This document shows positions 60,881 to 64,000 of a DNA stretch of 64,000 bases, one piece after another. Below the pieces are notes generated by a model. The model saw nothing but the letters and a program-made list of their open reading frames with translations. It ran no database searches and was not told the origin of the DNA. The position numbers were made by a program, and so were the translations under genes. This stretch comes from Dehalococcoidia bacterium (lineage in GTDB: Bacteria; Chloroflexota; Dehalococcoidia; GIF9; AB-539-J10): NCBI GenBank assembly GCA_040766535.1, contig JAXGQG010000004.1:25936-89935 (forward strand), read 5' to 3'. Numbering within the stretch: position 1 is the stretch's first letter; every line of letters begins with the position of its first letter.

Positions 60881-60918
60881 TTGACAGATCACTCGTTTAT
60901 TTCTAACATATGTCAGAA
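60881..60918 (+). promoter_or_regulatory. sigma-70-like promoter with overlapping near-palindrome upstream of the DUF134 gene
   Basis: TTGACA (60881-60886), 17-nt spacer, TAACAT (60904-60909). TTCTAACAT|ATGTCAGAA (60901-60918) is an 18-bp inverted repeat with one mismatched pair, covering the -10. Confidence 0.5.
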
Positions 60919-60947
60919 ATGATGATGGTCGCTTCGAGGATGAAGAC

Positions 60948-61607
60948 ATGCCAAGACCACCGAAACTGAGACAGATCGCGGCAGTACCAGCGGTAACGTT
61001 CTTCAAGCCGGCGGGAATGCCGATGAATAGCCTGGAGATGGTGACGCTGGCGCTGGAAGAGGTTGAGGCGATACGGCTTAAGGATGTTGAAGACCTGCAT
61101 CAGGAAGAATGCGCGCAACGGATGGGTGTGTCCCGAGGCACATTCCATCAGATCCTCAAATCGGCTCGTGGCAAGTTGGCCGATGCCATATTGAACGGCA
61201 AGGCGATACGGGTTGAGGGCGGATCGTTTGCCTTCCCGGGTGGGCGTTTCCGCTGTCGACGCGATGGTAGTGAATGGACCCTGCCACCTGGCCCGCTGCC
61301 CGGCCTGTCTTCGGTAACCTGTCCTACATGCAACAGCCACGAAGTGCATCCGGTGCCGCAACCGTGCGGACCGATGCGGAATGCCATGCCCGGACGCTGG
61401 GGACACGGCTGGCAGGGGCCGTGGGGGAGACGCCCCAATTCACCCCAATGGCGGGGGAGACTCCGAGAAGACGAGTCGGAACCAGACGTTGATCAGGGTA
61501 TGTCACAAGTTGAAGCACGTACCGATGAGAACGGGCCACGGTCTGGTATGAGCCTGGATTCACCGGGGTCCCGTGTGCGTGAGCAACAGGAACATGAACT
61601 GGAATAA
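60948..61607 (+). CDS. DUF134 (UPF0251) putative DNA-binding protein with long Cys/Trp/Gly-rich C-terminal extension
   Basis: Track ORF. MPRPPKLRQIAAVPAVTFFKPAGMP...LEEVEAIRLKDVEDLHQEECAQRMGVSRGTFHQILKSARGKLADAILNGKAIRVEGG is the DUF134 pattern. The extension carries C..(x)..CPTC. Confidence 0.8.
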   Translation: MPRPPKLRQIAAVPAVTFFKPAGMPMNSLEMVTLALEEVEAIRLKDVEDLHQEECAQRMGVSRGTFHQILKSARGKLADAILNGKAIRVEGGSFAFPGGRFRCRRDGSEWTLPPGPLPGLSSVTCPTCNSHEVHPVPQPCGPMRNAMPGRWGHGWQGPWGRRPNSPQWRGRLREDESEPDVDQGMSQVEARTDENGPRSGMSLDSPGSRVREQQEHELE

Positions 61608-61627
61608 CGCTGTGAAGGAGGTGCACG

Positions 61628-61870
61628 ATGCCGAGAGGTGATGGCACTGGTCCGATGGGTATGGGCCCGATGACGGGTCGGGCGGCTGGCTTCTGCGCCG
61701 GCTTTGGTACGCCTGGCTACATGAATGCCGGCCCTGGCTGGGGCTATGGCCGTGGATTCGGCCGCGGACTCGGCCCGGGATTTGGCCGCGCTTGGGCAGG
61801 CCGGGGACGCCCCGGTCGTGGCTTCGGCATGCGGGCAGGCTGGTACGGCATGCCGTATGGCCGCTGGTAG
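61628..61870 (+). CDS. DUF5320-type glycine/arginine-rich small protein 1
   Basis: Track ORF. MPRGDGTGPMGMGPMTGRAAGFC, then GFGRG repeats. Confidence 0.75.
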   Translation: MPRGDGTGPMGMGPMTGRAAGFCAGFGTPGYMNAGPGWGYGRGFGRGLGPGFGRAWAGRGRPGRGFGMRAGWYGMPYGRW

Positions 61871-61916
61871 CAGAAGTCGATGAATGACGAATGCAATGCG
61901 GATGGAGGGATGAACT

Positions 61917-62270
61917 ATGCCTGGAGGAGATAGAACAGGACCGATGGGTATGGGCCCGATGACGGGGCGCGGATTGGGCTATTGTGGCGGTCCTGGCGCG
62001 CCTGGCTATGCCAGGGGGGCGTCTGGATGGGGTGGTGGCTTTGGCCGAGGGTTCGGCTGGAGGTTCACTCGCAGGCCGGGGCCGTGTTTCGTGGCTCCTC
62101 GGTGGGCTGCGCCTGCCGGCAGATGGGGAGCGTGGCAGATCAGCCGCGAAGAAGAACTCGAGTACCTGAAGGGACAAGCCGACATGCTCAAAGATGAACT
62201 CGATGCCATACGTGGACGCATCGGTCAGATCGAGGCAGAAGGTGCTTCCGATTCTGGGGAGGAAGAGTGA
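61917..62270 (+). CDS. DUF5320-type small protein 2 with C-terminal coiled coil
   Basis: Track ORF. MPGGDRTGPMGMGPMTGRGLGYC, GFGRGFG, then EELEYLKGQADMLKDELDAIRGRIGQIE. Confidence 0.75.
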   Translation: MPGGDRTGPMGMGPMTGRGLGYCGGPGAPGYARGASGWGGGFGRGFGWRFTRRPGPCFVAPRWAAPAGRWGAWQISREEELEYLKGQADMLKDELDAIRGRIGQIEAEGASDSGEEE

Positions 62271-62821
62271 GAGTCGCCGTATCGGCTGCCGGGCCGACGC
62301 TCGATTCACCGGTTGATCCCCGGTTTGGTCGGTGCACGTATTTCGTGGTGGTGGATACGGACACGATGTCCGCTGAGGCCATCGAGAATGCAAGTGTGGC
62401 GGCAGCCCAGGGCGCAGGGATTGCGACCGCTCAGATGATCGCCGGCAAGGGAGTTGAGGTGGTTCTCACCGGCAACTGTGGACCGAATGCGTATGAGGCA
62501 CTCGCGGCCGCAGGAATCCGGGTCGTCACCGGCGTCACAGGGTCGGTGCGCGATGCCGCCCGTGCGTATGCCAGTGGGCAGATGCAGCCGAGTGACCGGC
62601 CAAACGTGGCCTCGCACCATGGAATGGGGTTGACCCAGGGGCGTGGCATGGGGAGTGGGATGATGCGCAGCGAAACACCTGCGCGGGCCAATTCCTCGAC
62701 CTCACAGCCTGCTACCGCAGTGACCGACTTGCTGCTCGATCTCAAGATGCAACTCGATGCGCTGCGCGAACAGGTTGCCGAGATAAACAACCGTATCGAT
62801 CAACTGCACAAGCAGAACTGA
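62267..62821 (+). CDS. NifB/NifX-type (dinitrogenase FeMo-cofactor-binding fold) protein fused to Gly-rich/coiled-coil tail
   Basis: Track ORF (GTG; GTGA overlap with the previous stop). MRVAVSAAG.....VDPRFGRCTYFVVVD...GAGIATAQMIAGKGVEVVLTGNCGPNAYEALAAAGIRV. Tail GRGMGSGM...DLLLDLKMQLDALREQVAEINNRIDQL. Confidence 0.8.
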   Translation: MRVAVSAAGPTLDSPVDPRFGRCTYFVVVDTDTMSAEAIENASVAAAQGAGIATAQMIAGKGVEVVLTGNCGPNAYEALAAAGIRVVTGVTGSVRDAARAYASGQMQPSDRPNVASHHGMGLTQGRGMGSGMMRSETPARANSSTSQPATAVTDLLLDLKMQLDALREQVAEINNRIDQLHKQN

Positions 62822-62833
62822 TTGGACTGCTCT

Positions 62834-62915
62834 GCGGGCGAGGCCAGCTGTAGGGTGGCCTCGCCCGCACCAGGTACAGTCGCAAACGACGCTGTGCGAG
62901 ACCCATTCGCACAGC
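62834..62915 (+). promoter_or_regulatory. two consecutive perfect stem-loops in the spacer before the zinc-ribbon DUF5320 gene
   Basis: GCGGGCGAGGCC (62834-62845), 11-nt loop, GGCCTCGCCCGC (62857-62868). GCTGTGCGA (62891-62899), 7-nt loop, TCGCACAGC (62907-62915), immediately followed by CTGGGAGGTGTGGAAATG (RBS + start). Confidence 0.5.
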
Positions 62916-62930
62916 CTGGGAGGTGTGGAA

Positions 62931-63155
62931 ATGCCATTCGGAGATGGAACTGGACCTATGGGACAGGGAGCCGGCACTGGTCGTGGACTGGGACGTGGAC
63001 TGGGTCGCGGTCGCATGGCGGGCGACAGGGCTGGAGCGGGGCCGGGGGGCTCATGCGTCTGTCCCGCGTGTGGTGCCCGGGCGCAGCACCAGGTGGGAGT
63101 CCCCTGCAATTCGTTGAAGTGTCCCAACTGCGGGGCGCGGATGACGCGAGCGTAG
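62931..63155 (+). CDS. DUF5320-type small protein 3 with C-terminal zinc ribbon
   Basis: Track ORF 62925..63155; ATG 62931 after GGGAGG. MPFGDGTGPMGQGAGTGRGLGRGLGRG, then CVCPACG...CNSLKCPNCG. Confidence 0.75.
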   Translation: MPFGDGTGPMGQGAGTGRGLGRGLGRGRMAGDRAGAGPGGSCVCPACGARAQHQVGVPCNSLKCPNCGARMTRA

Positions 63156-63158
63156 TTC

Positions 63159-64000
63159 ATGATAGTCTCAATCGCGAGCGGAAAAGGCGGCACAGGCAAG
63201 ACGCTGGTAGCGACCAGCCTTGCGTGTGCCCTGAATGGAACCGTGCCTGTTACATTGCTGGACTGCGATGTGGAAGAGCCGAACGATCACCTGTACATGA
63301 ACGCTCGTCTCATCGCATCCCGGCCCGTGGCGATTCAGGTGCCTTTCGTGGATGAATCGAAGTGTATCCACTGTGGCATGTGTCACGATGTCTGTGAGTT
63401 CAATGCCATCGCGGTGATGGGCTCGGCGGTCCTCGTCTTCAAAGAGCTGTGCCATGGATGTGGTGCGTGCACGCACTTCTGCCCGGTGGGCGCAATCACC
63501 GAAGTGCCTCACGAGATCGGAGTTGTGGAGGAGGGCGATGCCGGTGGCATTTGTTTCATCGATGGCGTACTCACCATCGGCCAGCCCATGGCGCCGCCCA
63601 TAATCCGCCAGGTCAAACAGCATACAGGTACAGAGGGCATCACCATCATAGACGCCTCTCCAGGGACCTCGTGCCCGGTGGTTGAGGCGGTGAAAGGGAG
63701 CGACTTCTGCATTCTTGTCACTGAACCGACTCCGTTCGGGTTGAACGACCTTCGGCTGGCCGTGGAGACGATGCGGGAGCTTGGCCTGCCGCACGGCGCC
63801 ATCATCAACAGGGTTGGTGTCGGCGACGCGCGAACCGAGGAATACTGCGCACAGGAAGGCATCCCTGTGCTGATGACTATCCCGTTGGATGAAAGAATCG
63901 CACGAACCTATTCGCGGGGAATTCCCCTCGTTGAGGCCCTTCCGGAATACCGCCAACGGTTTCTGAGCCTTTATCAGCGGGTCACGGAGTTGGTCAATGA
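63159..64000 (+). CDS. MinD/ParA/Mrp-type P-loop ATPase with inserted 2x[4Fe-4S] ferredoxin domain; the 3' end runs off the window
   Basis: Not in the track (open at the window end). From ATG 63159: MIVSIASGKGGTGKTLVATSLA (deviant Walker A), CIHCGMCHDVCEFNAI and CHGCGACTHFCPVGAI, IIDASPGTSCPV, ILVTEPTPFGLNDL. Confidence 0.8.
   Translation, partial: MIVSIASGKGGTGKTLVATSLACALNGTVPVTLLDCDVEEPNDHLYMNARLIASRPVAIQVPFVDESKCIHCGMCHDVCEFNAIAVMGSAVLVFKELCHGCGACTHFCPVGAITEVPHEIGVVEEGDAGGICFIDGVLTIGQPMAPPIIRQVKQHTGTEGITIIDASPGTSCPVVEAVKGSDFCILVTEPTPFGLNDLRLAVETMRELGLPHGAIINRVGVGDARTEEYCAQEGIPVLMTIPLDERIARTYSRGIPLVEALPEYRQRFLSLYQRVTELVN

Follow-up and report, generated by a model that had tools for sequence, protein, structure and literature searches.

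An ORP-type gene cluster with DUF5320 proteins and a DUF134 regulator in a Dehalococcoidia bacterium

Introduction

The ORP system of Desulfovibrio and the IssA protein of Pyrococcus furiosus are the closest described systems to the locus considered here, an ORP-type cluster that begins near the 3' end of a 64,000-nucleotide (nt) stretch of DNA from a Dehalococcoidia bacterium (hereafter the window, positions 25936-89935 of its contig, in a genome of 1.53 Mb, 60 contigs and 72% completeness). In D. gigas, ORP binds an anionic [S2MoS2CuS2MoS2]3- cluster non-covalently (PMC6345978). In D. vulgaris, five Orp proteins (Orp3, Orp4, Orp5, Orp8 and Orp9) form a physical complex; Orp3, Orp4 and Orp8 co-purify in Desulfovibrio, and MrpORP transfers iron-sulfur (Fe-S) clusters to Orp3-Orp4-Orp8 (PMC6345978, PMC8359166). 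The orp operons are expressed at low redox potential only, via the sigma-54 activator OrpR, of which they are the sole targets (PMC6345978, PMC8359166). A 2021 paper still called the cellular role of ORP unclear, and the ORP gene set is among the most widespread anaerobe-specific clusters that have no assigned job. IssA (PF2025) stores anionic thioferrate as particles of 20-300 nm, described for P. furiosus only, and its tail (70 residues, 21% Gly, 10% cationic, 20% aromatic, 16% Pro, isoelectric point (pI) 10.7, one Cys) was proposed to wrap this material (PMC5524996).

A first-pass annotation of the window, made from its letters alone, had described the front of this locus and had named no experimentally established function that it was aware of; it missed the published experimental work on the Desulfovibrio ORP complex (PMC6345978, PMC8359166). 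The ORP gene set is thus already known; for DUF5320 and DUF134, a search of one literature library, extended to UPF0251 and COG1342, found no functional paper. This work indicates that the stretch holds the front two-thirds of a nine-gene ORP-type operon. Its most likely function is the storage, assembly or hand-over of pre-formed metal-sulfide clusters under DUF134 autoregulation, and we favour, with moderate confidence, the view of a self-regulated machine that holds and delivers such clusters, the mechanism of which we infer. The idea of a metallocofactor assembly or delivery machine, put forward in the first-pass annotation, indeed fits the evidence.

Results and Discussion

Organization and conservation of the operon

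The contig continues 9.3 kb past the window, and the locus was extracted as L001 (L001 coordinate = window coordinate - 58064). Once the contig was read past the window, the operon comprised nine genes, of which six begin inside it, in the following order:

60948-61607, + strand: DUF134 regulator, 219 amino acids (aa); Pfam DUF134, 92.5 bits
61628-61870, + strand: DUF5320a, 80 aa; Pfam DUF5320, 56.4 bits, N-terminal half only
61917-62270, + strand: DUF5320b, 117 aa; Pfam DUF5320, 88.9 bits, full length
62267-62821, + strand: ORP-type NifX-like protein with a DUF5320-type C-terminal helix (coiled-coil tail), 184 aa; Nitro_FeMo-Co, 93 bits; C-terminal half of DUF5320, 21.7 bits
62931-63155, + strand: zinc-ribbon protein with the DUF5320 N-terminal motif, 74 aa; DUF5320, 21 bits, sub-threshold; GTG 62925 is an alternative start (76 aa)
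63159-64000, ending 19 nt past the window, + strand: MinD-type ATPase 1 with a 2x[4Fe-4S] ferredoxin insert, 286 aa; Pfam CbiA, ParA, Fer4
L001 5933-6790, same direction: MinD-Fer4 ATPase 2, with a 23-nt overlap with ATPase 1; Pfam CbiA, ParA and two Fer4
L001 6883-7242, same direction: NifX2, second Nitro_FeMo-Co protein, 119 aa (Pfam)
L001 7249-8253 (window-equivalent 65313-66317), same direction: DUF59-Mrp/NBP35 ATPase, 334 aa (Pfam)

On sequence grounds, the assignment of this locus to the ORP-type clusters is secure. The six open reading frames (ORFs) predicted between 60948 and 64000 were all confirmed, on the + strand and tightly packed, in line with the co-directional layout noted at first. 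Pfam likewise bore out the DUF134 first gene, the two DUF5320-type proteins and the MinD/ParA ATPase with 2x[4Fe-4S] that had been proposed there. The expected continuation past position 64000 was found, and added a second MinD-Fer4 ATPase, NifX2 and Mrp/NBP35. All nine genes are co-directional and overlap or are separated by a few bases, save for short gaps before DUF5320b and NifX2 and one structured spacer of 103 nt after the ORP-type gene.

The gene order proved to be conserved. In at least 15 of 20 loci from relatives, it reads DUF134, DUF5320 (one or more), ORP with or without the helix, zinc ribbon with the N-terminal motif, two MinD-Fer4, NifX2 and Mrp; the remaining loci miss one or more genes, several of them at a contig end. 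Within the order, 45 of 61 relatives have matches to PF17253 (Pfam DUF5320), usually as three to five clustered copies. Both DUF5320 and MinD-Fer4 occur in 42 of these genomes and neither in 13, including assemblies that are 97-99% complete; the complete set is absent, for instance, from G053 (97% complete) and G041 (99% complete). Three of the 61 have the ATPase only (two at contig ends, one as a pseudogenised copy), and three have DUF5320 only, all as sub-threshold helix matches. The gene set is inherited and lost as a unit. An apparent decaying copy of the cluster was seen in one relative (G048:C1:636301-637868), where the MinD-Fer4 genes are broken by stop codons and no DUF5320 is detectable, which fits such a loss.

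The recurrence in anaerobic bacteria and archaea, stated in the first-pass annotation, was supported by a scan of species-representative genomes with the DUF5320b alignment, which gave 460 confirmed loci. The 80 that were kept span more than 20 phyla, Asgard and Thermoplasmatales archaea among them; neighbours were examined in the 35 loci that reach 15 kb or more. Next to DUF5320, these long loci carry MinD-Fer4 (32/35), ORP-type NifX (31/35), Mrp (28/35) and, in 6/35, DUF134; MinD-Fer4, ORP-type NifX and Mrp occur together in 26. The arrangement is far beyond chance, because the order recurs in the loci of relatives and because 26 of the 35 long loci of other phyla carry all three partner families.

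DUF5320 was also followed into the order of locus L068 (a metagenome-assembled genome (MAG) of Desulfohalobiaceae), presumably Desulfovibrionales, sampled as 61 genomes. PF17253 was found in 42 of them, and a true MrpORP, above cut-off, in 21, all of which (21/21) also have a DUF5320-type gene. The commonest of several layouts is an OrpR-like enhancer-binding protein (EBP) with a GAFTDA motif, ORP, sometimes a small zinc-ribbon gene, two MinD-Fer4 and MrpORP; the GAFTDA motif is listed for DVU2106 (PMC4641369). The exact orp7-orp8-orp9 layout of D. vulgaris Hildenborough was found in none of the Desulfovibrionales loci searched. DUF5320-type genes lie in or near those loci that have a true MrpORP, which makes DUF5320 part of bona fide orp clusters. 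DUF5320 belongs to ORP-type clusters in many phyla.

DUF5320 proteins, ORP-type protein and spacer

With the gathering cut-off of PF17253 (27 bits), two genes are DUF5320 members (56.4 and 88.9 bits), and the tail of the ORP protein (21.7 bits) and the zinc-ribbon protein (21 bits) fall below. DUF5320a and DUF5320b share the motif MPxxDGTGPxGxGPMTGxxxG(F/Y)C, with eleven invariant positions, which in the DUF5320b alignment are M1, P2, G8, P9, G11, G13, P14, T16, G17, G21 and C23. In DUF5320a, the motif (MPRGDGTGPMGMGPMTGR..GFC) is followed by a Gly/Arg/aromatic tail with a terminal W (37% Gly, 14% Arg/Lys, 21% aromatic, zero acidic, pI 11.8). In DUF5320b, the motif with its invariant Cys23 is followed by a cationic Gly/Arg/Trp stretch and, at the C-terminus, by an acidic helix that is coiled-coil-like. 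The post-motif regions as a whole contain 29-37% Gly, 14% Arg/Lys, about 20% aromatic residues, 9-12% Pro and zero acidic residues, with a pI of about 12, and the tail of the DUF134 protein is similar in composition. Outside the cluster, no further occurrence of a clear form of the N-terminal motif was found in this genome. Short DUF5320a proteins mostly end in W or are aromatic/Arg-rich at their end (GRW, GWW, PWW, PRW), as DUF134 tails often do (RRW, GW).

What had been called a third DUF5320 protein with a zinc ribbon was upheld in part. The ribbon (CxCPxCG...CPxCG) is present, as is the N-terminal motif, here without its Cys; the rest of DUF5320 is not shared. Its orthologues of 74-76 aa conserve MPxGDGTGPxGQGPGTGRG...CxCPxCG...CPxCG. 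The true start is most likely ATG 62931 (MPFGDGTGP) and not GTG 62925, judging from a ribosome-binding site (GGGAGG) 9 nt upstream and from the 74-aa orthologues.

The start of the ORP-type gene overlaps the stop of DUF5320b by 4 nt. The NifX fold assigned to its product at first stood firm, with one addition, namely that the protein is itself fused to the coiled-coil half of DUF5320. Its NifX domain has D. gigas ORP as best solved match (PDB 2WFB, E 1.3e-24, 90 bits), and the next-ranked structures are TM1290 and MTH1175. It is followed by a linker (residues 104-150, pI 11.5, zero aromatic residues) and then by the helix. C-terminal tails of ORP orthologues score up to 49 bits for DUF5320, and PF17253 is paired with PF02579 in about half of the 120 closest ORP-type homologues listed.

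Downstream of this gene, one further element was found:

62834-62915, + strand: structured spacer with two GC-rich hairpins and no U-tail; minimum free energy -63.2 kcal/mol, z -4.4

It separates the scaffold and carrier genes from the zinc-ribbon and ATPase genes, and may determine how much scaffold protein is made from the genes before it relative to the ATPases encoded after it. No credible Rfam family was found for it. In relatives of the same genus, the spacer mostly forms two hairpins as well, built from different sequences.

Promoter, candidate operator and DUF134 regulator

Two elements lie upstream of the DUF134 gene:

60881-60909, + strand: sigma-70-type promoter, TTGACA at 60881-60886, 17-nt spacer, TAACAT at 60904-60909
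60900-60919, no strand assigned: candidate DUF134 operator, a 20-bp palindrome (TTTCTAACAT/ATGTCAGAAA) overlapping the -10 element

The promoter matches the consensus at 10 of 12 positions and is the best, and sole good, promoter-like site in L001 2400-9600. TTGACA is conserved 5' of DUF134 in most of the relatives examined, with one-base variants in a few. Of 20 loci examined, 19 have DUF134, and all 19 carry at its promoter a CATATG-centred palindrome of about 20 bp, over or just after the -10, in upstream DNA that is otherwise unalignable. Within the genus, it takes the form TTTCTAACATATGTCAGAAA, and in other genera TTATTGACATATGTTCATAA or TTATGAGCATATGCTCATTA; related sites were found in Desulfobacteraceae, Kiritimatiellales, Acidobacteriota and other MAGs wherever the operon starts with DUF134. 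Among the 140 CATATG sites of this genome, the site at 60900-60919 is the single such palindrome; no second site was found in this 72%-complete genome, from which no wider regulon can be derived. Because the palindrome overlaps the -10 of the DUF134 promoter, autorepression by DUF134 is predicted.

The DUF134 protein consists of a helix-turn-helix (HTH) resembling sigma region 4 (approximately residues 20-100), a small beta module that bears C103, C125 and C128, a Gly/Arg/Trp tail at 141-170 and, last, an acidic end; Pfam DUF134 (PF02001, gathering cut-off 27 bits) covers residues 3-94. The same architecture, with an RFRCxxDG(H/S)EW...CPxC module and a Gly/Arg-rich tail ending in W or R, is common to 19/19 relatives. 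DUF134 proteins of other phyla also have RG-rich tails, often preceded by Cys-rich segments. The AlphaFold2 (AF2) model (mean predicted local distance difference test (pLDDT) score 69) resolves the HTH with confidence and has a small beta module, with disorder at residues 142-219. Foldseek returned only local matches to sigma-70 region 4 (root-mean-square deviation of the HTH 0.7-0.8 A over 49 residues), and no whole-protein fold match at E <= 1e-3. In a Desulfovibrionales-order genome (L180 6896-7612), one ORF of 238 aa fuses DUF134 (1-97) to an ORP-type NifX domain (117-238), next to a second, stand-alone DUF134 gene. This fusion ties the regulator to the carrier fold.

Such tails might suggest that DUF5320 proteins, like the tail of DUF134, are of the RGG type and bind nucleic acids or form condensates, the link with Fe-S genes being regulatory only. 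In Methanosarcina mazei, a motif scan indeed flagged one DUF134 and one DUF5320 protein for an RG-type G-quadruplex-binding motif, as a pattern match without experiment (PMC7565180), and the DUF134 tail is predicted to be disordered. By contrast, the strict co-inheritance with the ATPases, the fusion of the DUF5320 helix to the ORP domain and the invariant Cys after the N-terminal motif point to a structural role inside the machine. We consider the nucleic-acid explanation highly improbable.

MinD-Fer4 ATPases

The two ATPases form a paralogous pair, each with CbiA, ParA and two Fer4 domains in Pfam. Among 137 MinD-Fer4 homologues, the deviant Walker A and all eight ferredoxin Cys vary little or not at all. 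Two extra Cys are also conserved, C36 in DCD (93%) and C172 in the DxxPGxxC of switch II (99%), and this pattern suggests that they could provide a further site for a metal or cluster at the dimer interface. C172 lies seven residues after the switch II Asp, as does Cys132 in NifH. A NifH-like electron-transfer ATPase is at most a lead, as Foldseek placed archaeal MinD, ATPase-type HypB, FleN and ApbC first, and BchL 41st, for the AF2 model of ATPase 1 (pLDDT 94); Soj was also near.

The proximity of this model to archaeal MinD, FleN and Soj also bears on a role in cell division or positioning, in which the MinD-like ATPases would form an ATP-driven spatial pattern at the membrane or poles and Fe-S would serve only as a redox gate. 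DUF5320 proteins would then be MinE/ParB-like partners: their N-terminal peptide would stimulate the ATPase, and their RG tract would bind nucleoid DNA. That small proteins of several kinds share one short conserved N-terminal peptide speaks for this, such a peptide being typical of ParA/MinD partners. FtsZ is present in 41/41 relatives, and this universal presence does not discriminate. The Desulfovibrio authors themselves proposed septum positioning, from the morphology of an orpR mutant and the polar location of MrpORP (PMC6345978, PMC8359166). However, the other partners in the cluster (NifX-fold carriers, Mrp/NBP35, DUF59) all belong to cofactor-handling families, no MinC/MinE-like gene lies in the cluster, and the absence of the set from the nearly complete G053 and G041 makes it dispensable for division in the order. 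A positioning system is therefore regarded as unlikely.

NifX2 and Mrp

The last two genes correspond to MrpORP in two pieces. Among NCBIfam models, MrpORP (NF041136, cut-off 450 bits) scores highest with Mrp (287 bits, over model positions 2-234) and also with NifX2 (117 bits, over model positions 265-365), each score lying below the cut-off. Since they match separate parts of this model, NifX2 and Mrp are, from their sequences, a split MrpORP in reversed order. NifX2 has a TM1816-type structure as its best structural match. Mrp has its Walker A (SGKGGVGKS) and scores 273.7 bits with Pfam ParA (NUBPL). The CxxC motif, which defines the Fe-S-carrying Mrp/NBP35 proteins and binds their bridging [4Fe-4S] cluster, is replaced by ENMSYLYVPEIDKR (YLYVPEIDKR), here and in 16/16 relatives of the order examined; out of 41 cluster-linked Mrp proteins from other phyla, 32 keep a CxxC (CPxCG). 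No second Mrp homologue was found in this 72%-complete genome.

Proposed mechanism and its weight

From a mechanistic point of view, a DUF134 dimer bound to the palindrome would repress its own operon, with the Cys module and the Gly/Arg/Trp tail as its sensing part. The two ATPases would form a heterodimeric, Fe-S-loaded, ATP-gated switch that loads the two NifX-fold carriers with inorganic metal-sulfide species or unloads these from them, and the DUF5320 tails would hold anionic metal-sulfide material. The shared N-terminal motif may dock on a common partner, most likely the ATPases. Mrp, which is devoid of CxxC here, would act as an adaptor or ATPase partner rather than as a classical cluster scaffold. 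The helix of DUF5320b may pair with the like helix of the ORP protein and so form an IssA-like "domain plus tail" in trans; this is suggested because a helix takes the place of such a tail in the ORP protein, and DUF5320b combines a tail with a like helix. The phase-separating scaffold raised in the first-pass annotation would also be compatible, by analogy with the IssA precedent.

A more specific and rather doubtful possibility is that DUF5320, ORP-type NifX and the two Fe-S MinD ATPases make up an ATP-driven store and dispenser of an inorganic metal-sulfide polymer (thioferrate-like or thiometallate), a modular and widespread relative of IssA. The tails would hold the mineral, the N-terminal peptide would couple the tails to the ATPases and the DUF134 tail would read the fill state. 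If true, the ORP system, which has lacked an explanation since 2011, would gain a function, and two DUF families their roles; anaerobes of more than 20 phyla would then share an ATP-coupled Fe-S storage and dispensing that bypasses the ISC and SUF scaffolds. Should the likeness to IssA fail, the cluster remains an ordinary, already named system.

Several points weigh against cluster holding and delivery as proposed here. In this organism, the cluster is known from its genes alone, and the likeness of the tails to IssA is compositional only. In several relatives, the ORP protein has no coiled-coil tail and DUF5320b keeps its helix, so that pairing with ORP in trans is not the sole role of this helix, and an obligate pairing of the two helices, considered as a candidate, is weakened. 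In D. vulgaris, the Orp complex was pulled down without Orp7 (PMC6345978). Finally, the published defects of the orpR mutant concern morphology and so speak for cell division, not for cluster handling (PMC6345978, PMC8359166).

Neighbouring unit and nature of the metal

Approximately 1.2 kb downstream of the cluster, a second unit (L001 9434-13850) encodes an Rrf2 regulator with CX6CX5C, a MacB/FtsX-type ABC transporter and three lipoprotein-like FtrD-like proteins ending in CC motifs. It adjoins the ORP-type cluster in relatives of the same genus too, and may serve metal uptake or efflux in connection with it.

The Rrf2 regulator, of an iron-dependent family, and the FtrD-like proteins suggest iron, and thus speak against a system for molybdenum or tungsten, in which the ORP-type carrier would bind a heterometallic Mo- or W-sulfide cluster, the ATPases would insert or extract it to serve Mo/W enzymes and the DUF5320 tails would buffer thiomolybdate or thiotungstate. 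Such thiometallate handling is suggested by the Mo-Cu cluster of ORP, the closest solved relative (PMC6345978), and by the Mo-containing cofactor precursors carried by the NifX/NafY family (PMC5524996); cationic tails, for their part, would suit anionic metal sulfides of any kind. The Mo-Cu cluster has itself yet to be proven physiologically relevant, however, and neither a molybdate or tungstate transporter nor a molybdopterin gene is present in the ORP-type cluster or beside it. A dedicated Mo/W role is thus considered improbable.

Comparison with Known Systems

The locus shares with NifH/NifX/NafY, CooC and ATPase-type HypB a dimeric ATPase of the SIMIBI class, small NifX-fold carriers of pre-formed clusters and a conserved Cys in switch II (DxxPGxxC). 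It differs from them in that no nitrogenase, CO dehydrogenase or hydrogenase client gene lies nearby, and in the ferredoxin insert, which is unique to the MinD-Fer4 family.

Like IssA, it encodes the same clade of IPR003731/Nitro_FeMo-Co domain (MTH1175- and ORP-like) and a disordered tract that is cationic, aromatic, rich in Gly and free of acidic residues, and that has a single Cys. In IssA, the domain and a long cationic/aromatic/Gly tail form one chain, which is not the case in the ORP protein here: the tract is mostly on DUF5320a, DUF5320b and the DUF134 regulator instead of on the NifX-fold protein. These tracts bear an N-terminal motif and, in DUF5320b, a coiled-coil helix, and ATPases are included; particles are known for IssA, and genes alone here.

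Compared with MrpORP (Orp9) and the Mrp/NBP35/ApbC group, Mrp has the same deviant Walker A (GKGGVGKS), and its gene lies inside an ORP-type operon, downstream of the ATPases. By contrast, MrpORP is represented here by two polypeptides with sub-cut-off scores, and the CxxC is replaced.

The closest correspondence is with the orp genes of D. vulgaris, in which the MinD-Fer4 pair matches Orp3/Orp4, the ORP-type protein Orp8, and Mrp with the NifX domain Orp9. Both systems combine two MinD ATPases with 2x[4Fe-4S], an ORP-type Nitro_FeMo-Co protein and Mrp/NBP35 with a further Nitro_FeMo-Co domain. Both occur in anaerobes only and have one dedicated local regulator, with a genome-unique palindrome here and the targets of OrpR limited to the orp operons. 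They differ in that this locus is one co-directional sigma-70-type operon under DUF134, whereas the orp genes of D. vulgaris form two divergent sigma-54 operons that OrpR controls; this locus has no EBP gene, OrpR-like EBPs being seen solely in Desulfovibrionales loci. MrpORP is here two genes in reversed order, with a DUF59 N-terminal domain and no CxxC in the Mrp part, and no separate third NifX gene of the Orp5 type is present. The ORP protein has a coiled-coil tail here, and three small proteins carry the DUF5320 N-terminal motif. Because both the sigma-54/OrpR control and a fused MrpORP with CxxC are missing, this locus is a Dehalococcoidia variant, and not a copy, of the Desulfovibrio ORP system.

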